Below are positions 24,625-44,666 of a DNA stretch of 64,000 nt, piece by piece. The DNA is from an uncultured delta proteobacterium (GTDB taxonomy: Bacteria > Myxococcota > UBA727 > VGSZ01): the NCBI GenBank assembly GCA_963775425.1, contig CAVZJB010000004.1:256001-320000 (forward strand). Reading direction: 5' to 3'. The translations under genes and the position numbers were made by a program. The notes under the pieces are model-generated. The model worked only from the letters and a program-made list of their open reading frames with translations. It had not been told where the DNA came from and did not search any database. Each line of letters begins with the position of its first letter. Position 1 is the stretch's first letter.

Positions 24625-25977
24625 ATGGCACCCACCGTCGCCCTGTACCGCGGCCGCTTCAATCCTCCGGGCCTGCACCACGTGGAGGGGCTCCGGGCGT
24701 TGCTCGCCCAGTTCGATCGCGTCGTGGTCATGCCCTGGGGGCCGATGTCCGATCGGCCCATCGACGAGAACATCGCCCCCACCTTCCGCGCGCTCCTGAT
24801 CGACGTCGCCTTTCAGCACCTCGACCCGCGCCTCGTCGTGGACCTCACCGACATCGAGCAGGCCACCATCACCGGCCCCGCCGAGGTCGAGCAGGAAAAC
24901 CCCCACCTGCAGGGCGCCGAGGTCTTCCACGTCATCGAGGCCGAGTCGTTCGCGGCGGAGCGCCGGCGCCTTCACCCGGGCGCGCGCTTCGCCGTGCTCG
25001 CGCCCGAGGGCGCGCCGGTGCCGGACGGCGACTTCCCCGTCGTGCGCGTGCACACCGACGTCGCCGGCTCGGTCATGCGCAAGCGCCTGTACGCGGGCCA
25101 ATCCATCGCCGACCTCGTCCCCGCCGGCGTCGCCGCCGCCGTCGCGCGCTACGGGCTCTACCGGGGGATCCCGCGCTCCACCACGCGCCTGCGCATCGCA
25201 GAGCCGCGGCTGTTGCTCGTGGCCGACGAGCGAAACCCGAAGGCCATGATGTGGCGCGAGCGCTTCGCGCGCTTCGCCGTCGACGTCGACCCCAACCTCG
25301 TCGTGGTCTTTGGCGGCGACGGCTCCATGCTGCACGCCATTCAACAGCACTGGCGCAAGCGCGTGCCCTTCTTCGGCGTCAACACCGGGCACCTCGGCTT
25401 CCTGCTGAACGACCCGCAGCTCATCGGCGACGACGAAGACGCCGTCGCCGCGCTCTTCGAGCAACAGCTCCTCGCGCACCACATGCCCATGCTCCACGTC
25501 GAGCTGCTCGCCCGGGGCGACGGCTGGCGCTCGGGGCTGACGTTCAACGACGCCTGGATCGAGCGGGCCACCGGTCAGAGCGCGTGGGTCGAGGTGCACG
25601 TCGACGACCACGTCCGCATGCCCAAGGTCGTCTGCGACGGCGTCCTCGTCTCCACCGCCGCCGGCTCCACGGCCTATGCGCGCTCCATGGGGGCCTCGCC
25701 GCTGCTCGCCGACACACCCGCGTGGCTCCTCGTCGGCAGCAACGTGATGGAGCCCATCCTGTGGAAGAGCTCCCTGTTGTCGACGTCGTCCACGGTGCTC
25801 GTGCGCTCGCTCGACCCCGACAAGCGGCCGCTCAACGGCTTCCTGCACGGCGTGTCGCACGGCGAGGTCATCGAGATGCGCGCCCGCCACAGCCGCGCGG
25901 CCTCGGTGGAGCTCGCGTTCCTCGGCGCGCACGACATGGCCGAGAAGATCGCGAGCATTCAGTTCCCTGTCGGCTGA
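24625..25977 (+). CDS. Fusion of a NadD-like nucleotidyltransferase domain and NAD kinase
   Basis: N-terminal GRFNPPGLHH and SVMRKRLYAGQSIADLVPAGVAAAVARYGLY; C-terminal GGDGSML, GVNTGHLGFL, FND, DGVLVSTAAGSTAY. Confidence 0.85.
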   Translation: MAPTVALYRGRFNPPGLHHVEGLRALLAQFDRVVVMPWGPMSDRPIDENIAPTFRALLIDVAFQHLDPRLVVDLTDIEQATITGPAEVEQENPHLQGAEVFHVIEAESFAAERRRLHPGARFAVLAPEGAPVPDGDFPVVRVHTDVAGSVMRKRLYAGQSIADLVPAGVAAAVARYGLYRGIPRSTTRLRIAEPRLLLVADERNPKAMMWRERFARFAVDVDPNLVVVFGGDGSMLHAIQQHWRKRVPFFGVNTGHLGFLLNDPQLIGDDEDAVAALFEQQLLAHHMPMLHVELLARGDGWRSGLTFNDAWIERATGQSAWVEVHVDDHVRMPKVVCDGVLVSTAAGSTAYARSMGASPLLADTPAWLLVGSNVMEPILWKSSLLSTSSTVLVRSLDPDKRPLNGFLHGVSHGEVIEMRARHSRAASVELAFLGAHDMAEKIASIQFPVG

Positions 25978-26374
25978 AAGGCTGACGAAAAACAAGGCTC
26001 GTAGCAGCACTCGGCGAAGCCGCCCACAAGGTGGCTCGCCGCGCGGAGTACGTGGCGAGGCACGTCGGCGCGCAAGAACCGCTGCAGGTTGTGAGGAAAC
26101 GGCGGGTCCGAGCGGTGTTGTGATCCCGCTATCAGCGCACGTGGCGGGTTCGTGCGGGTCGTGTGCGCGCCGACGTGCCTCGATGCAACGTCGGCGCGGA
26201 CTTCAGGCGGCGACGGCTGCCATCAGGGCGACCGTCGTCACCTTCGCTAGCCCCGTACGTAGAGCGTGTCGAGGCCAAGCTGGGCCTTGAGCACGGCGTT
26301 GGCGTGCTCGGCGAGACCCCTTCCGGGTGGCTCGGATCAACGGGCCAGCCCTCGTCGCCACACGCGTCAGCCTC
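25978..26374 (-). mobile_element. Internally deleted IS remnant/MITE (DDE transposase, IS1182/IS5-like), copy 1
   Basis: Terminal IR AGGCTGACG (25979-25987) and CGTCAGCCT (26365-26373), TGA on both flanks; the minus strand carries frameshifted IRATRKG-LAEHANAVLKAQLGLDTLYVRG-LAKVTTVALMA; second copy at 43.5-44.07 kb. Confidence 0.75.
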
Positions 26375-26389
26375 TGAGCGCGCGAGCGC

Positions 26390-26824
26390 TCAGGCGGCGC
26401 TCGCACCGGCGGGCGGGTCGTCGGCGGGCGGGTCGCCGGCGGGCGGATCGTCGACGCGGGGGGCCCCGCGCGAGAAGGCGCGCGCCGCGTGCATCGCCGC
26501 GCCGGCGACGACGCCGACGGCGACGAAGCTGAACGACAGCGCGTGCCACGCGAGCCACGAGAGGATCACGGCGAACCCGCCGAGGCTGAGCGCGCCGACG
26601 GCGCCGGCGACGGCCGCGCGCTTGCCCATGCTCGGCATGCGCGCCACCACGGTTTCGATGAGCGTCGTGAGCCCGCCGCTCCACGCGGCGAGGACGAGGG
26701 CGGCGACGGCGACGGTGGAGAATCCGGGCCGCGCGTCGGCGGGCCCGCGCATGGCGACGAACGCGAAGATCCCCCCGCCGAACACGAGGTAGATCAAGAA
26801 GTTCAGGGTGAAGCGCGCGAGCAC
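26390..26824 (-). CDS. Small integral membrane protein (about 4 TM)
   Basis: 144 aa with four hydrophobic segments and a DDPPAG-repeat tail. Confidence 0.7.
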   Translation of the reverse strand: MLARFTLNFLIYLVFGGGIFAFVAMRGPADARPGFSTVAVAALVLAAWSGGLTTLIETVVARMPSMGKRAAVAGAVGALSLGGFAVILSWLAWHALSFSFVAVGVVAGAAMHAARAFSRGAPRVDDPPAGDPPADDPPAGASAA

Positions 26825-29883: not shown

Positions 29884-32172
29884 ATGAAGCTCCGCGCGAC
29901 GCCGGCGATCCGCGTGTACGATTGGATTCGCGGCACGCCGTGGGGCCTCGTCGTCATGGCGCTGATCGTCGGCATCGGCGCGGGGCTCGGCGCCATCGCG
30001 TTCCGCGCGCTCATCGTCGCCTTCACCACGCTGTTCACCGGGCACGGCACGGCCGGCCAGGCCGTGCGAGCGGTTCACCCCTACCTGCCGTTCCTCGGCG
30101 TGTTCTTCGTCGTGCTCGTGCCCATCGTCGGCGGCCTGTTGTACGGCCCGCTGATTCAGCTCTTCGCGCAGGAGGCCCGCGGCCACGGCGTCCCCGAGGT
30201 GATGCTCGCCGTCGCCGAGCGCGGCGGACGCATCCGCGGTCGCGTCGCCGTCATCAAGTCGATCGCGTCCGCGCTGTGCATCGGCGCCGGCGGCTCGGTC
30301 GGCCGCGAGGGCCCCATCGTGCAGATCGGGTCGGCCATGGGCTCGGCGCTCGGCCAGCTCGTCGGCGTCCCCGAGTCACGGCTGCGCCTCCTCGTCGCCT
30401 GCGGCGCCGCGGGCGGCATCTCGGCCACGTTCAACGCGCCCATCGCGGGCGTGATGTTCGGCCTCGAGCTCATCCTGCGCGACTTCGAGGCTGAGTCGTT
30501 CGGCGTCGTCGTCATCTCGTCCGTGGCCGCCGACGCCGTCGGCAGGAGCGCCTTCGGCTCCGAGGCCTTCCTCACGTTGCCGCAGTTCCAGCTCGTCTCC
30601 GTCGGCGAGTTCCCCCTGTACGCCATCCTCGGGCTCCTCGCCGCCTTCGCCGGCGTCGGCTTCATCCGCGGCCTCTACGGCACCGAGGACTTCGTCGACA
30701 AGATCTGGCGCGGGCCCGAGTGGTTGCGCCCGGCCGTCGGCGGCCTCGCGCTCGGCGGTCTCCTGCTCGTGCTGCCGCAACTGTACGGCGTCGGCTACCC
30801 GGGCATCGAAGACGCCATCAACGGCAACTACGGTCTCGTGCTGCTGCTCGCGCTCGTCGTCGGAAAGATCGCCGCCACCAGCGTCACCATCGCCATCGGC
30901 GGATCCGGCGGCGTCTTTGCGCCCTCGATGTTCATGGGCGCGATGCTCGGCACCGCGTACGGCGACGTCGTGCATCGGTTGTTCCCGGGCGCCACCGCGC
31001 CGCCCGGCGCGTACGGCCTCGTCGGCATGGGCGCCGTGTTCGCGGCGGCGGCGCGCGCGCCCATCACGTCGGCGATCATCATCTTCGAGCTCACCGACGA
31101 GTACCGCATCATGCTCCCCATCATGCTCGCGGTCGTCGTCGCCACCGGCGTGAGCAGCGCGCTGTCCAAGGACACCATCTATACGCTCAAGCTGCGCCGC
31201 CGCGGCATCGACGTCCGCCGCGGGCGCGCCGCGAGCTTGATGGAGCTCATCCCCGTCCGCGAGGCGATGCAGGCCGTGCCCAATCCCCTGCCCGCCGACC
31301 TGTCGCTCGCGGAGGCGATGCAGCGGCTCACCCACGAGGACCGCGACGCCCTCCCCGTCGTCGACGGCGCCGGGCGCTACCGCGGCACGGTGAACGCGCG
31401 CAGCCTCGAGGGCGCCGCGCGCGAAAACGCGCTCGACGTACCCGTCTTGCACCTCGCGCTCGACGTGCCGGCCACCCGGGTGAACGCGACGCTCGAGGAC
31501 GCGCTCGGGGCGCTCGTGCGTCACGAGATGCCCGGCATCCCGGTGCTCTCCGAGGACGGCGAGACCATCGCCGGCTGGCTCACGCACAGAGACGTGCTGC
31601 GCGCGTACTACAAGAGGCTCGCCGCGGGCGTCGACCGCGTCGAGGAGAGCGTCGGCGGCGGGCTGCCCGCGGCCGACAGGTTGCGCGGCTACCGCGTCAT
31701 CGAGCTCGCGCTCACGCGCGACCGCTTCCCCGTCGCCAAGGAGCTCGGCGCGCTCGGCTTGCCGACGTCGGCGCTGGTGCTCACGGTCCGGCGCGGAGAC
31801 GACAACATCGATCCCGCCGACAACGTCGTCCTCGAGAAGGGCGACCGCGTCGTCGTCCTCACCCGCGAAGAGACCGCCGCCGCGGTGCAGCGCGCCTTCG
31901 AGCCTCCGACGCCCGCCGCGACGGCGAGCGACGCGACGGCGACCGCCTCGGCGAGCAACACGGCGGCGAGCGACACGGCGGCGAGCGACACCGCGGCGAG
32001 CGACACCGCGGCGGGCGACACGAAGGCGAGCGACACGGCGGCGAGCGACACCGCGGCGAGCGACACCGCGGCGGGCGACACGAAGGCGACCGGCGACACG
32101 CCAGCGCCGCCGCGGCAGCCGGAGGGTGACGCGGCCGAGCCGACGGCGGCGCCGAAGCCCGCCGACGGCTGA
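29884..32172 (+). CDS. ClC chloride channel/antiporter with CBS pair and TrkA_C-like domain
   Basis: GHGVPE, GREGP, TFNAPIAG, GGVFAP; two CBS domains; low-complexity tail. Confidence 0.93.
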   Translation: MKLRATPAIRVYDWIRGTPWGLVVMALIVGIGAGLGAIAFRALIVAFTTLFTGHGTAGQAVRAVHPYLPFLGVFFVVLVPIVGGLLYGPLIQLFAQEARGHGVPEVMLAVAERGGRIRGRVAVIKSIASALCIGAGGSVGREGPIVQIGSAMGSALGQLVGVPESRLRLLVACGAAGGISATFNAPIAGVMFGLELILRDFEAESFGVVVISSVAADAVGRSAFGSEAFLTLPQFQLVSVGEFPLYAILGLLAAFAGVGFIRGLYGTEDFVDKIWRGPEWLRPAVGGLALGGLLLVLPQLYGVGYPGIEDAINGNYGLVLLLALVVGKIAATSVTIAIGGSGGVFAPSMFMGAMLGTAYGDVVHRLFPGATAPPGAYGLVGMGAVFAAAARAPITSAIIIFELTDEYRIMLPIMLAVVVATGVSSALSKDTIYTLKLRRRGIDVRRGRAASLMELIPVREAMQAVPNPLPADLSLAEAMQRLTHEDRDALPVVDGAGRYRGTVNARSLEGAARENALDVPVLHLALDVPATRVNATLEDALGALVRHEMPGIPVLSEDGETIAGWLTHRDVLRAYYKRLAAGVDRVEESVGGGLPAADRLRGYRVIELALTRDRFPVAKELGALGLPTSALVLTVRRGDDNIDPADNVVLEKGDRVVVLTREETAAAVQRAFEPPTPAATASDATATASASNTAASDTAASDTAASDTAAGDTKASDTAASDTAASDTAAGDTKATGDTPAPPRQPEGDAAEPTAAPKPADG
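31951..32085 (+). repeat. Coding 15-nt tandem repeat (ASDTA) with a 60-nt higher-order duplication
   Basis: Nine 15-nt units; 31966-32025 is identical to 32026-32085. Confidence 0.9.
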
Positions 32173-32346
32173 CTCAGCGACCGGAGGGAGCGGCCGCGCT
32201 GACTCAGCGACCGGAGGGAGCGGCCGCGCTGACTCAGCGGCCGAGACGACGGCGGCGCTGACTCAGCGACCGGAGGGAGCGGCCGCGCTGACTCAGCGAC
32301 CGGAGGGAGCGGCCGCGCTGACTCAGCGACCGGAGGGAGCGGCCGC
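32168..32346. repeat. Intergenic tandem array of six ~30-nt units with palindromic core GCTGACTCAGC
   Basis: GCTGACTCAGCGACCGGAGGGAGCGGCCGC five times plus a 29-nt variant as the third unit; lies between convergent genes. Confidence 0.95.
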
Positions 32347-32357
32347 GCGCACCAGGG

Positions 32358-33452
32358 TCAGCGCGCGGTTGCGGTGGAAAACGGCCGGGTCGTCAATTCG
32401 GCGAGCAGCGCTTCCGCGTCGCGATCGCCGGGGACGAGGGCGAGGTAGCCGCGCACCGCCTGCAGCGCGTGCTTTCGGTCCTCCATGCCCATCCAGGCGG
32501 CGGCGATCTCGCGGGTGACGACGAGGTCCGTGGGCGCGATGCGCCGCGCGGACTCCAGGTGATGAAGCGCCTCGTCGTGCGCGCCGATGAGGCGGTTGAA
32601 TGTCACGCCGAGCCCGAAGTGTCCCTCGGGCTCCTCCGGCAGCTCGACCGTGAGCGTCCGATACGCGTCCTCCGCGGCCTCGACGTCGGTGGCGTGCTTG
32701 GCCGCGTCCTTCTCCGCCGCCGCCGCCGCCGCGAACAGCTGCGCGTCGACGAGCAGCGCCTCCTTCTTCGACAGCCGCGGCGAGCCCTTGGCCTTCGCCA
32801 ACGCCTCCGGCGTCTTCAACGCGGCGAGGCAAGGCGCGCACGCCGGGTCGAGCGCCACCGCCGCCGCTGCATCTCCGTCGACGAACGCGGCGTACGCCGC
32901 GGCGTTGTCCGTGGGGGGCACGAAGCGCGGCACCGGCCCCGCCGAGAGCCGCTTCGCCACCTGCTCCGCCAGCGCCTGCACACCGTCGGCGTCGAGGCTC
33001 GTGCGCTCGCCGCCGTCGACGAGCTCCGCGTGCCACGCGCCCCCCTCCGCCGACACGCGCACCCACGCGCGCAACGCGATGGCGCCGGCGACGTCGGCTT
33101 CGCTCGCCGGACCGTGGCGCGACAAGATCTTGCGGCGCGCTTGCACCTCCGCCACCGGCGCCACCGTGATGCCCGGCGTGGCCGAGAGCGCGCGGGACAG
33201 CGCGTCGCTCGCAGGCGTCCGCGGGCTCCACTCCGCCCCGCCGTCGACGACGGCGATGCGCGCGCCCGACCCGCGCGGCCCCCGCTGCGTGATCTTCCCG
33301 GCGAGGATCCCGACGAAGCTGCCCACGGCGACCACGAAGGCGACGCCGACGGGCACCGCCCAGTTGCGGCGCTTGACCGCGGGCGACGCCGCGTGCGGGC
33401 TCGCGGCTTGCTCACCGGGCTCAGGGGGCTCAGGGGCGTCGACGACGGCCAT
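32358..33452 (-). CDS. Membrane-anchored TPR protein
   Basis: One N-terminal TM segment; C-terminal TPRs (PEGHFGLGVTF, EALHHLESARRIAP). Confidence 0.75.
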   Translation of the reverse strand: MAVVDAPEPPEPGEQAASPHAASPAVKRRNWAVPVGVAFVVAVGSFVGILAGKITQRGPRGSGARIAVVDGGAEWSPRTPASDALSRALSATPGITVAPVAEVQARRKILSRHGPASEADVAGAIALRAWVRVSAEGGAWHAELVDGGERTSLDADGVQALAEQVAKRLSAGPVPRFVPPTDNAAAYAAFVDGDAAAAVALDPACAPCLAALKTPEALAKAKGSPRLSKKEALLVDAQLFAAAAAAEKDAAKHATDVEAAEDAYRTLTVELPEEPEGHFGLGVTFNRLIGAHDEALHHLESARRIAPTDLVVTREIAAAWMGMEDRKHALQAVRGYLALVPGDRDAEALLAELTTRPFSTATAR

Positions 33453-37916: not shown

Positions 37917-38573
37917 GTGAGGTGCATCGTCGCCTTCGACCTCGACGGCACGCTGGTCGACTCGGTCGGTGACATCGCCCGGGCGCTCAACGGCGCGCTC
38001 GCCGAGCTCGACCTCGCGCCCGTCGACGTCGACGTCGTGCGCGGCTTCGTCGGCAACGGCTCGCGCATGCTGATGCAGCGCGCGCTCCACAGCCGCACGG
38101 GCCGGGCGCCGGCCCCCGCGGCGGTGGACGACGCCCTGGCGCGGTTTCGCGCCCACTACGAGCGCGCGCTCGTCGGGGAGACGCGGCCCTTCGAGGGGAT
38201 CCCGGCGGCGCTGGCGGCGCTCAAGGATCGCGCGCTGTTGGCGGTGGCGACCAACAAGCCCGCGGCCTTCGCGCGGCCCATCGTCGAGGCGCTGATGCCG
38301 GGCGTGTTCTCCCTCGTCGTCGGGCCCGAGGACGCCGGCGGCGCGCTCAAGCCCGATCCGGCGATGCTGCGCCACATCGAGCGCACCCTCGAGGGAGAGC
38401 TCGCCGCGTTCGTGGGGGACTCCGGCGTCGACGTCGCCACCGCCAAGAACGCGGGCGTCCCCGTCATCGGCGTCGCCTGGGGCCTGCGCCCTGACGAGCT
38501 TGCCGGCGCCGACGCCGTCGCGCCCGAGCCCGCCGCGCTGCCGTCGGTGCTCGCCCGCGTCCTCGCCGGCTGA
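37917..38573 (+). CDS. gph: HAD-family phosphatase, phosphoglycolate phosphatase-like
   Basis: FDLDGTLVDS, ATNKP, KPDP, VGDSGVD. Confidence 0.85.
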   Translation: MRCIVAFDLDGTLVDSVGDIARALNGALAELDLAPVDVDVVRGFVGNGSRMLMQRALHSRTGRAPAPAAVDDALARFRAHYERALVGETRPFEGIPAALAALKDRALLAVATNKPAAFARPIVEALMPGVFSLVVGPEDAGGALKPDPAMLRHIERTLEGELAAFVGDSGVDVATAKNAGVPVIGVAWGLRPDELAGADAVAPEPAALPSVLARVLAG

Positions 38574-38582
38574 CCCCGCATC

Positions 38583-38813
38583 GGACAACGCCCGTCGGGG
38601 ACAACGCCCGTCGGGCGGGTGCGCGTCCCCGCGTCGGGGACAACGCCCGTCGGGCGGGTGCGCGTCCCCGCGTCGGGGACAACGCCCGTCGGGCGGGTGC
38701 GCGTCCCCGCGTCGGGGACAACGCCCGTCGGGCGGGTGCGCGTCCCCGCGTCGGGGACAACGCCCGTCGGGCGGGGGACAACGGTCGTAGGGCGGGGGCT
38801 TGTCCCCCGCGTC
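38583..38813. repeat. Intergenic 39-nt tandem hairpin array
   Basis: GTCGGGGACAACGCCCGTCGGGCGGGTGCGCGTCCCCGC four times (38594-38749) with partial or degenerate flanking copies. Confidence 0.95.
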
Positions 38814-41398: not shown

Positions 41399-42219
41399 GC
41401 TCGGTGTCCGAGGGGCCGCCCACCACGGTGACGGCGCCGCCGTCGTCGTCGACGGTGGCCACGGCGGACCAGCCCTACATCTCGTTTCGGGACGTGTCGA
41501 AGTCGTTCGGCCGCCAGGTCATCTACGACGGCCTCGATCTCGAGGTGAGGCGCGGCGAGACCCTGTGCGTCATCGGTGCGTCGGGCGTGGGCAAGAGCGT
41601 GATGCTCAAGATGCTCATCGGCCTCTTGCCCGTCGACGCCGGCGAGATCACGTTCGACGGGCAGTGCGTCAGCGACCTCGACGACGACGTCGCCTTCCTG
41701 CCGGTGCGCCGCCGCATCGCCATGGTGTTTCAGGGCGCGGCGCTCTTCGATTCGCTCACGGTCTACGAAAACGTCGCCTATCCGCTGCGCGAGCAGTTCA
41801 ACCTCGAGGAAGACGACATCGCGCGGCGCGTGGCCGAGAAGCTCGAGTGGGTGGGGCTGCCCGGCATCGAGCAGAAGAAGCCGGCCGAGCTCTCGGGCGG
41901 CATGAAGAAGCGCGTCGGCCTCGCGCGCAGCATCGCCACCGACCCCGAGGTCATCCTCTACGACGAGCCCACCACGGGCCTCGATCCGGTGAACACCAAG
42001 CGCATCGGCAACCTCATCCTGTCGTTGAGCGAGCGCTTGAAGTGCACGAGCCTCGTCGTCACGCACGACATGACCACCGTCTTTCAGGTGGCCGACCGCA
42101 TCGCCTTCATCTACGGCCGCCGCATCCGCGCCGTGGGCTCGCCCGATGAGATGCGCACCCATCGCGACCGGCGCGTGAGCGGCTTCATCGAAGGCGATCC
42201 CGACGCCTTCGACGAGTGA
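41395..42219 (+). CDS. ABC transporter ATPase, MlaF/Mkl type
   Basis: GASGVGKS, FQGAALFDSLTV, LSGGMKKRVGLAR, YDEPTTGLDP. Confidence 0.9.
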   Translation: MSSVSEGPPTTVTAPPSSSTVATADQPYISFRDVSKSFGRQVIYDGLDLEVRRGETLCVIGASGVGKSVMLKMLIGLLPVDAGEITFDGQCVSDLDDDVAFLPVRRRIAMVFQGAALFDSLTVYENVAYPLREQFNLEEDDIARRVAEKLEWVGLPGIEQKKPAELSGGMKKRVGLARSIATDPEVILYDEPTTGLDPVNTKRIGNLILSLSERLKCTSLVVTHDMTTVFQVADRIAFIYGRRIRAVGSPDEMRTHRDRRVSGFIEGDPDAFDE

Positions 42220-43448
42220 CGAGCATCATGTTGCTCGCCGCCGCCGTCGTCACCGCGCTCACCGCACTCGCCCCCGCGCTCGAGCCCGTGGCGGACTTCG
42301 GCGACAACCCCGGCAACCTCTCGATGCTCGAGCACGTGCCCGCGGGCGCGTCGGGTCCCCTGCCCCTCGTGCTCGTGCTGCACGGCTGCAGTCAGGACGC
42401 CTCGTACGCCGACGCCGTCGGGCTCGTGACGCTCGCCGACGAGGTCGGCGCCGCGCTCGTCGTGGCCGAGCAGAAGAGCGCCAACAACCAGCAGCGCTGC
42501 TTCAACTGGTTCGAGGAGGGCGACATCACGCGCGACCAGGGCGAGGCCGCGTCGCTCGCGAGCATGGTGTCGTCGATGAAGGCGCGGCACGACATCGACG
42601 ACGCGCGCGTGTTCGTGACCGGGGTGTCGGCGGGGGGCGCGATGAGCGCGGTGATGCTCGCCGACTACCCCGACGTCTTCGCCGCCGGCGCGGTGCTCGC
42701 CGGCGTCCCCTACCGCTGCGGCACCGGGCTCACGGCGGCGTTCACCTGCATGTCGAGCCCGCCGTCGCGCACGGCGGACGCGTGGGCGCAGCTCGTGCGC
42801 GACGCGGCCCCGCCTGGGTCGAGCTCGTTCCCGCGCGTCGCGGTCTGGGCCGGCACCAACGACCACACCGTGAGCCCCACCGACGCCAACGACCTGGTCC
42901 TTCAGTGGACCGGCGTGCACGGGCTGGACGCGGCGGCGCCGTCGACGACGCGCGCGCTCGGCAGCGCCGTCGTCGAGGACTTCGGCGCGGACGGCGACGG
43001 GCCGCCGCTCGTCGAGAGCGTGCGCATCCCGGGCATGGACCACGGCACGCCGGTGGACCCCTCCGCGGGCTGCGGCACCGCCGGGGACTTCATCCTCGAC
43101 GTCGGCATTTGCTCGAGCCGCGCCATCTTCCATTTCTTCGGTCTCGTCGACGACGGCGCCCCCGGCGACGCGGGCATCGACGCGGACGCGGGCATCGACG
43201 CGGACGCGGGCATCGACGCGGACGCGGGCATCAACGCGGACGCGGGCATCAACGCGGACGCGGGGACCGGCGCGGACGCGGGCACCGGCGCGGGCACCGG
43301 CGACGCCGGCATCGGCGACGCGGACATCGGCGACGCCGGGCCCGGCGACGGCGTCGCCCGCGGCTGCGCCTCCAGCCCCGACGCGGCCCTGCCGATGGCG
43401 TTGCTGCTGCTCGCCGCGCACGTGCGCCGACGGTCGCGAACGCGCTGA
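42216..43448 (+). CDS. Secreted PHB depolymerase-family esterase with MYXO-CTERM-like tail
   Basis: LHGCSQ, CFNWF, GVSAGG, GMDHG; DAGIDA linker; GCASS-hydrophobic-RRRSR tail. Confidence 0.88.
   Translation: MTSIMLLAAAVVTALTALAPALEPVADFGDNPGNLSMLEHVPAGASGPLPLVLVLHGCSQDASYADAVGLVTLADEVGAALVVAEQKSANNQQRCFNWFEEGDITRDQGEAASLASMVSSMKARHDIDDARVFVTGVSAGGAMSAVMLADYPDVFAAGAVLAGVPYRCGTGLTAAFTCMSSPPSRTADAWAQLVRDAAPPGSSSFPRVAVWAGTNDHTVSPTDANDLVLQWTGVHGLDAAAPSTTRALGSAVVEDFGADGDGPPLVESVRIPGMDHGTPVDPSAGCGTAGDFILDVGICSSRAIFHFFGLVDDGAPGDAGIDADAGIDADAGIDADAGINADAGINADAGTGADAGTGAGTGDAGIGDADIGDAGPGDGVARGCASSPDAALPMALLLLAAHVRRRSRTR
43167..43274 (+). repeat. Coding 18-nt tandem repeat (DAGI[D/N]A)
   Basis: Five near-identical units followed by degenerate ones. 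Confidence 0.9.
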
Positions 43449-43493
43449 TGGGAGGAGCCGCACCGTCGATGCGGCGCGTTCGCGCCCGGCGCG

Positions 43494-44075
43494 GAGGTGT
43501 CGACGCGTGCGACGACGACGACGCCGGCCGTCGCCCCGATGCGAGAAAGGCGCCGAAGGCGGCGTAGACCGTGATCCATCGATCCGAGCCACCCGGAAGG
43601 GGACGGTGCTACGGCCACACGGCGGAGCGGAAAGGAGCTCCGAGCTCGGCGACGAAGACGCGCGCCGAGTTGAGCGCCGGGGCGCCGAGCTCTCCGCTCC
43701 TTTCCGCTCCGGCGGTGGCGACGTTGTCTAGCCTTCGCTGATCCGAGCGCCCAAGCACTCGCAACTCACCGAGATTTGCGCGCCAAAAGTGCGGCTCGAG
43801 CTGACGACCCAGGCCGTGGAAGGTGACGACGGTCGCCCTGATGGCCTTCAACCTGCTGCAGAACCTCGCGAAGCTCACCGCCTGAAGTCCGCGCCGACGT
43901 CGCATCGAGGCACGTCGGCGCGCACACGACCCGCACGAACCCTGTACGACGTTCGCGGGCTGATGAGCGATCGTCAGCTCCGGCCCGACGTGCCTCGCCA
44001 CGTACTCCGCGCGGCGAGCCACCTTGTGGGCGGCTTCGCCGAGTGCTGCTACGAGCCTTGTTTTTCGTCAGCCTC
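43494..44075 (+). mobile_element. IS remnant/MITE copy 2, inverted relative to copy 1; left end approximate
   Basis: Shares four blocks with 25978-26374, including 90/90 and 64/65 nt; encodes KVTTVALMAFNLLQNLAKLTA-stop; ends TTTTTCGTCAGCCTC then TCA. Confidence 0.72.
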
Positions 44076-44165
44076 TCATCAGTCATCCGGAGGATGAGGT
44101 GGGCGTCGCTCCCATAGCGCAGAGGGCCGACGTTCGACCGCGCGCCCGGCGCCGATACCTCCACC

Positions 44166-44666
44166 ATGCTCGACGCGTTCCGCTCAGACCCCGCCCACGC
44201 CGCCGGCCGCATCCTCGGCCGCGTCATCTTCAGCCTCGCCTACGGCGGCCGCGGCGCCGCCGCCCCCGCGGGCCGCGAGGAGGAGATCGTGGACGAGGTC
44301 GCCGGCGCCTTGAACGCGTGCCTCGAGCGCTTCTTCTCGCCTGCGGTGCTCTTCGATCCCTTGACCAGGCGCGCCGTCGTCGACGCGGACACCCAGCTCA
44401 CGCTCACGCCGGTGGACGTGAAGGCGCTCGACGGCGACCTCGACAGCATCCGGGCCCGCCTGCACCTGCTCGAGAAGCGGGGGCTCGACCACCTGCCCGA
44501 GTACGCCTACCTCAGCGCCAGGTGCGAGGAGCTCACGCAGAGGTGGCGCGAGAGCTGCCACGCCCAGGGAGAGCCGACGTCCATGCGGCCGGTCCCGACG
44601 CCGGAGGACGCGGAGCCCGACCCGACGCCGCCGGAGCTGTCGGCCTTGAGCTCGATGTACCGCTGA
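44166..44666 (+). CDS. Hypothetical protein
   Basis: 166-aa ORF with normal amino-acid composition, convergent on the MFS gene. Confidence 0.65.
   Translation: MLDAFRSDPAHAAGRILGRVIFSLAYGGRGAAAPAGREEEIVDEVAGALNACLERFFSPAVLFDPLTRRAVVDADTQLTLTPVDVKALDGDLDSIRARLHLLEKRGLDHLPEYAYLSARCEELTQRWRESCHAQGEPTSMRPVPTPEDAEPDPTPPELSALSSMYR

Follow-up and report, generated by a model that had tools for sequence, protein, structure and literature searches.

Internally deleted copies of a putative IS1182/IS5-type insertion sequence lie mostly at TGA stop codons in an uncultured delta proteobacterium

Described systems and the element in the window

Subgroups of the IS5 family share a TNA target consensus. Internally deleted, non-autonomous DNA transposons of the Ac/Ds and P-element type are known in eukaryotes, and guide RNAs are borne by other insertion sequences, namely the bridge or seek RNAs of IS110/IS1111 and the omega RNAs of IS200/IS605. 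Within the IS1182 family, ISPse1 of Paracoccus is described as an element of 1,653 bp with 16-bp inverted repeats and a 4-bp duplication (PMC3281130). For the related IS1272/TnSha1 of staphylococci, IS1272 is reported to integrate into terminator hairpins; in that account it makes no duplication, deletes part of the hairpin and inserts in both orientations, and a review cited there states that some IS1182 members target palindromes (PMC4923244). In eukaryotes, PIF/Harbinger transposons are described with a 3-bp duplication (PMC2213677), and the miniaturisation of a Tc1/mariner element into MITEs is attributed to microhomology (PMC3814204).

Here, we followed up two copies of a decayed insertion sequence (IS) in a window of 64,000 nucleotides, the whole stretch of DNA that was analysed. 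A sequence-only reading of the window had described the two copies as inverted, with a conserved non-coding end around a variable core. Both copies are real: 25979-26068 is the reverse complement of 43985-44074 at 90/90 positions, and the second conserved block, 26146-26210, equals 43878-43942 at 64/65. The segments between the blocks also have the claimed lengths, 77 nt (26069-26145) in copy 1 and 42 nt (43943-43984) in copy 2.

Copy 1 (25978-26374, plus strand) is 397 bp long, was found with both termini, and aligns to positions 1-374 and 1623-1680 of the reference copy C17:334184-335915; its transposase sense is the minus strand. The 9-bp terminal inverted repeats at 25979-25987 (plus strand) and 26365-26373 were borne out, as was the TGA present on both sides, at 25975-25977 and 26375-26377. 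The left TGA (plus strand) is the stop codon of a NAD-kinase-like gene (24625-25977) and forms the left copy of the putative 3-bp target duplication. The right one (plus strand) begins a small palindrome, the far end of which is the stop codon of a convergent gene (26390-26824), and the 40 nt from 26375 have a predicted fold of -13.3 kcal/mol. Between the termini lie a transposase remnant (26203-26316, minus strand), which consists of C-terminal codons with internal deletions and a stop codon at 26203-26205, and a right-end remnant (26317-26374, plus strand), which contains the right terminal repeat. The Pfam family DDE_Tnp_1_6 matches the piece of the long copy that is homologous to this transposase remnant. 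From the transposase stop to the terminal repeat runs the non-coding 3′ end of the IS, 225 nt (25978-26202, minus strand), which had earlier been taken for a structured end. Copy 2 (43581-44077, minus strand) has its left end at 44077, lacks the right terminal repeat, and aligns to positions 2-300 and 1420-1644 of the same reference.

A BLAST search of the same genome (18 contigs, 8.26 Mb) with both window copies gave 183 segments, which were merged into 81 loci; the two-copy picture thus stands for the window, but the family is spread over the whole genome. The longest copy, the reference, is 1,732 bp; its transposase, encoded against the left-to-right direction, is frameshifted and spread over three frames, and its fragments match Pfam DUF772 (E=5.7e-9) and DDE_Tnp_1_6 (E=1.5e-8). 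No intact transposase was found in any of the 81 loci. A tblastn search of the 18 contigs with a full-length homologue (P0001, 417 aa) returned fragments only, indicating that no live member of the family remains in the assembled sequence; completeness is 94.55%, and an intact copy could sit in the assembly gaps. Public data held 320 transposase homologues at E<=1e-5, coming largely, by their record titles, from myxobacterial MAGs and isolates. Among the best 120 of the 320, most are 400-420 aa long, and most carry PF05598, PF01609 and PF13751; the closest, P0001 and P0003, matched a 204-aa N-terminal query at 82% identity, with 73% of the query aligned.

The N-terminal DUF772 and C-terminal DDE_Tnp_1_6 domains mark the family as a putative IS1182/IS5-type insertion sequence with a DDE transposase. 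In the ISfinder sense of IS1182, the domain pair, the terminal repeats and the short duplication are all present, and an intact reading frame is missing. Like the members of that family, the element has a single DDE transposase with both domains, a length within the size class, short terminal repeats and a short duplication. It departs from them, ISPse1 included, in its 3-bp duplication of invariably TGA, in the lack of an intact copy, in the long non-coding stretches at both of its ends (about 225 and about 300 nt) and in about 80 heterogeneous deletion derivatives. Judged by these sequence features, the element would be a new IS1182-family member with heterogeneous deletion derivatives. With the results below, we regard it as very probable that the feature in the window belongs to a set of at least 81 broken, non-autonomous copies of a single IS1182/IS5-type IS, that the conserved end is the left end of the IS itself, that the middle differs by two deletions, and that integration occurred by a DDE mechanism into TGA.

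When the left end was searched by DNA in 40 related genomes, it was absent apart from one 36-nt match in a single genome (G006, E=4e-4). In four metagenome runs of one study, parts of the element were joined to other flanks, so the family or a close strain is present in those samples; no contig bridging an empty site was found in these runs. One contig from these runs (X1-X4, compared with window positions 25700-26700) keeps a 31-nt stretch that was lost from copy 1.

Several other repeats were observed along the way. The truncated right side of copy 2 is joined to the tail of a second, unrelated family of small hairpin-forming repeats, here called REP2 (about 43450-43580, minus strand, an approximate extent read against other REP2 copies). 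REP2 units are about 100-170 nt long, occupy at least 60 BLAST loci and have no Rfam match; further examples lie at C12:260085, C2:13153 and near 67,700 on the minus strand of C17 in the same genome (G000). They often begin 0-9 nt past the TGA stop of a gene, directly follow the right end of about 11 of 24 IS copies, and can also be arrayed in tandem as gene-TGA-unit-TGA-unit. An end that resembles the right end of the IS precedes some units. Upstream of several units, only two bases separate the stop codon from a second TGA (C5:699290, C7:294786 and, on the minus strand of C9, 234104), and this arrangement of triplet, two bases and triplet may resemble the footprints of cut-and-paste excision. 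The window further contains a tandem array in which a 30-nt unit with a small palindrome recurs about seven to eight times (32138-32392), another of five copies of a 39-nt unit (38554-38787), and an 18-nt tandem repeat (43131-43370) in the 3′ part of a PHB-depolymerase-like gene (42216-43448), where it encodes a run of Asp-Ala-Gly-Ile-type hexapeptides.

Deletion pattern and the left end

The earlier remark that the transposase remnant is deleted differently in each copy holds across the genome, with 81 architectures in the 81 loci. These architectures contain 102 deletion junctions, 78 of them distinct. The BLAST segments on the two sides overlap by 1-20 nt at 62 of the 102 junctions (by 1-11 nt at 56), which we read as microhomology; there is no overlap at 6 junctions and 1-91 nt of unaligned filler at the remaining 34, some of these filler values arising because the reference copy itself lacks the segments concerned. 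Among the recurring junctions, 1519/1583, which falls within a long leader hairpin, is the most frequent (12 loci), ahead of 491/1384 (4 loci) and of 286/1087 and 500/1203 (3 loci each). Such sharing suggests either that some derivatives transposed once already deleted or that one slip happened more than once. The copies are short and non-coding as in MITEs, yet they have 81 architectures and sizes from 38 to 1,732 bp; a uniform MITE family was ruled out, since few junctions are common to several copies (12, 4, 3 and 3 loci, and six seen twice). As with the deleted transposons of eukaryotes, many copies keep both tips and differ in their internal losses, with short overlaps at most junctions; here, in contrast, the host is bacterial, and a few junctions are common to 2-12 copies. 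Our non-exhaustive literature search did not meet a bacterial family with about 80 copies and about 80 different internal deletions.

The leader hairpin, upstream of the transposase start, is very long and near-perfect and lies at about positions 1468-1583 of the reference copy (L001) and at about 43620-43720 in window copy 2; 12 copies share the loss of its inner part. In the relative L102, the closest metagenome relative with readable DNA (76% protein identity), an equally long leader hairpin of unrelated sequence occupies the same place (L102:216-318), the structure being kept and the sequence replaced.

We then considered the left end itself. The long-range pairing reported for it was borne out, as an 18-bp perfect inverted repeat in copy 1 (arm A, 26057-26074, plus strand; arm B, 26164-26181) and as 12 bp in copy 2. 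In both the sequence and the predicted folds, this pairing competes with a local 10-bp hairpin (26167-26176 with 26188-26197, plus strand), which lies just downstream of the transposase stop in the transposase sense and whose 5′ arm is common with arm B. The perfect repeat and the post-stop hairpin are too good for chance, and we infer that the inverted repeats, in which this end is rich, may have a role for the IS, either by forming a hairpin at the 3′ end of the transposase mRNA or by binding protein.

The pairing also lends itself to another reading, in which the left end is a structured RNA module under selection and domesticated by the host, either a 3′ UTR stabiliser or terminator read through from the upstream gene or a small RNA. 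Such a module would account for the retention of copies at gene ends, always in the same orientation. Besides the long-range helix and its competing hairpin, this reading could draw on the single-sequence fold z-scores of the non-coding end, which are modest (-2.1 for the plus and -2.8 for the minus strand), and on the relative L102, where a similar hairpin directly follows the transposase stop; the L102 contig ends 58 nt past that stop, so that the rest of its 3′ end lies beyond view. When the ends were compared by blastn and nhmmer with 160 loci of transposase relatives, short L102 matches at the post-stop hairpin were the only ones. The tips are also unequally kept, the left one in 61 of the 81 loci and the right one in 14 (by BLAST) to 24 (by motif). 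This asymmetry is equally well accounted for by the purging of deletions that run into the gene, and the fixed orientation, seen in all 61 copies that keep the left tip, follows from the asymmetry of TGA.

The distribution of the deletions argues against a specially kept end. Internal deletions enter it in about half of the copies, contrary to the claim that it is near-invariant; the number of copies in successive 50-nt bins from the left tip falls from 62 through 60, 46, 38, 32 and 22 to 12, and the share of the 81 loci that cover the long copy drops smoothly from both tips, with no plateau or step where the non-coding stretch ends. The region of the long-range helix survives in only about half of the copies, and small deletions take out one or the other of its arms in several. 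A consensus fold of 19 copies of the majority form contained 78 predicted pairs, none of which was compensatory (covariation term +0.52), a test of low power because the copies are 95-99% alike; the few changes in the alignment affect one side of a pair or disrupt it. Arm A of the 18-bp repeat was paired in both the centroid and the MFE structure and was invariant in the 19 copies apart from one broken pair. Rfam gave no match on the element at E<=10 and nothing at the gathering score for three loci, the only match with E<=10 being a 15-bit COG2908 hit outside the element, and no promoter-like or terminator-like site was found. Given the smooth decay, the absence of covarying pairs and the lack of an Rfam family, the proposal of a mobile or domesticated RNA scaffold finds no support, and we regard a selected RNA module as unlikely. 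The near-invariant look of the end instead arises because the copies are young throughout (about 90-100% identical), because a locus can be recognised as a copy only when it keeps a tip, and probably because leftward deletions would cost the neighbouring gene its stop codon and 3′ end and would thus be purged. The far more frequent retention of the left tip fits this purging.

Insertion at TGA stop codons

A TGA triplet is found at the junction in all 61 loci that keep the left tip; in 50 of them it is preceded by C, compared with 42% at control stop codons. A junction TGA was scored as an in-frame stop of the upstream gene when the frame had GC3>=0.85, was open for at least 99 codons and gave the best GC3-minus-GC2 of the three frames. 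By this test, 56 of the 61 junction TGAs are in-frame stops; a first pass anchored on a motif had given 45 of 58, plus 10 judged by eye. Across the genome, 6,113 of 145,705 TGA triplets (4.2%) pass the same test, a control that over-calls, as 4,078 of the 10,487 'stop-like' sites it accepted were TAG. The five misses are C12:207148, with a frame of 90 codons; C4:2389, with an in-frame TGA-TGA pair; C5:323497, with a stop codon 5 nt upstream; C11:129062, with a non-coding flank; and window copy 2, which faces the 5′ side of a gene at 44166 and is thus among the few copies off a stop codon. The orientation to the upstream gene is the same in all 61 copies, and in those on a stop codon the transposase gene is convergent with that gene.

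The same association could arise with no targeting of stop codons, if the element landed in the last codons of genes and brought its own TGA, only slightly truncated genes surviving. The right-hand TGA is indeed intact in only 12 of 21 two-ended copies, against 61/61 on the left, and for two of four upstream genes examined the orthologues are one codon longer. However, a landing blind to frame predicts an in-frame TGA at the tip in about a third of the copies, not in 56 of 61. For the four upstream genes, orthologues were compared in other genera of the family, and 12 of 14 matches terminate there or no more than 1-2 codons away. One of these genes has its last residue in common with 4 of 5 matches; in the NAD-kinase-like gene, 3 of 4 matching genomes end within 1-2 residues, and the match in G007 is 4 codons longer; and for a gene on C16, one orthologue match in G001 continues for 6 codons to a TAA. 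This agreement of the orthologue ends indicates that the element sits on the native stop codon, and no remainder of a gene was seen by eye to the right of the elements inspected.

Relatives of the IS speak against an own TGA as well. Five of them, at about 50% protein identity (L027, L028, L029, L031 and L036), have homologous tips and a matching TGA, TCA or TAA on both sides, which indicates a 3-bp duplication of a TNA target. Two of them, the Archangium-type L028 and L029, again have the in-frame TGA stop of a convergent gene as their duplicated triplet, a different gene in each, and no coding signal was found at the triplet in L027 and L031. An eight-copy family of a lower-GC MAG (L054-L061) was given no weight in the stop-codon test, its flanks being conserved past the assigned ends, which were thus misplaced. 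With the reading frames, the orthologues and the relatives considered, a self-supplied TGA is quite unlikely.

We further looked at hairpins at the target. The 40 nt from the right TGA fold at a mean of -9.4 kcal/mol, compared with -7.3 kcal/mol in 2,000 control stop contexts (n=8, one-sided p=0.027), a weak trend, and a crude, uncontrolled stem search of reconstructed sites gave stems of 3-9 bp. The element resembles IS1272, as that IS is described, in belonging to the same family and in its strong association with DNA just downstream of genes; it differs from that description in that TGA is duplicated, the stop is preserved, and only one orientation occurs. With IS5-type elements and PIF/Harbinger transposons, as far as these are described, it has in common the 3-bp T-N-A duplication, given the TGA, TCA and TAA of its relatives. 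In contrast to both, this genome uses only TGA, in one orientation, and nearly always at the stop of a gene.

Integration would proceed as follows, the chemistry, the duplication and the target choice all being read from sequence alone in a genome with no intact autonomous copy. The element would integrate by DDE transposition into a TGA triplet and duplicate it. The surviving copies lie nearly always on a native TGA stop with the transposase gene convergent, and the gene thus keeps its stop codon. More tentatively, we propose that a whole IS clade of myxobacteria-like genomes may recognise gene ends, integrating at the TGA stop in one orientation with a 3-bp duplication that regenerates the stop, and that interrupted repair may leave Ds-like internally deleted derivatives; we regard this broader proposal as possible rather than probable. 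In its favour, the bias of 56/61, set beside about 4% of all TGA triplets, seems stronger than the purging of harmful insertions alone would give, and L028 and L029 show the same layout at two different genes. A non-exhaustive search of the open literature found no description of an IS landing on stop codons.

The middle segments and the meaning of the family

The segment between the conserved blocks is less variable than the two window copies had suggested. The 77-nt core 1 (26069-26145, plus strand) is the majority form and is identical over its full length at 28 loci, and the 42-nt core 2 (43943-43984, minus strand) is a minority form found at only 3 loci in the genome. Only two of the 32 copies that retain 200 nt or more of the left end have the 42-nt form, namely window copy 2 and C11:129062. 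Core 2 matches at 42/42 in copy 2 and at C9:78538-78579, and at 31/31 over its last 31 nt at C11:129150. The copy at C9:78356 holds both cores in tandem, in the order 90-nt block, core 1, 14 nt, core 2 and the start of the 65-nt block. Aligned pairwise to this copy, copy 1 shows one gap of 56 nt and copy 2 one gap of 91 nt, with near-identity elsewhere, so the two cores are adjacent parts of one longer stretch. The lineage of copy 1 would have lost 56 nt and that of copy 2 91 nt from a longer ancestral stretch, of which C9:78356 retains both cores. The differences between the cores thus come down to ordinary indels; together with the decay of the copies and the lack of covarying pairs, this is the outcome that the sequence-only reading had itself named as refuting its proposal.

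That reading had also raised, with reserve, the idea of RNA-guided behaviour. When each core was compared with the flanks of its own insertion, the longest matches were 8 nt, a length reached by 161 of 300 shuffled cores, and 9 nt, reached by 31 of 300. The element is like guide-RNA-bearing insertion sequences in having a structured non-coding stretch by the transposase gene inside the element; unlike them, it has a DDE enzyme, no loop that varies from copy to copy, no complementarity to target or donor, and a fixed triplet as its site. A system of the bridge, seek or omega RNA kind was accordingly rejected as a candidate, the core being identical at 28 sites and the domains found being only DUF772 and DDE, with neither an IS110-type DEDD recombinase nor a TnpB nuclease. 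A core that pairs with target DNA and guides DDE transposition, akin to bridge or omega RNAs, is suggested by nothing beyond the layout of the two window copies, in which conserved blocks flank a differing middle, and with one core at many different sites, both cores in tandem in one copy, flanks that match no better than shuffled cores, an insertion site that is always the same triplet and an IS1182/IS5-type DDE transposase, it has next to no chance of being right and is already refuted by the copy census.

The case carries a caution, in that two decayed copies of a mobile element, each lacking a different piece, can give the impression of a variable core within a conserved scaffold, and a genome-wide census of copies resolves at once whether a scaffold or deletions are at hand. 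The interest of the family rests on its association with stop codons and on its Ds-like spectrum of deletions. If true, the persistence of an IS nearly exclusively at stop codons, where it leaves the gene intact, would represent a neat, low-cost choice of target, and the stop-codon habit may amount to a new rule of target recognition for DDE transposases.
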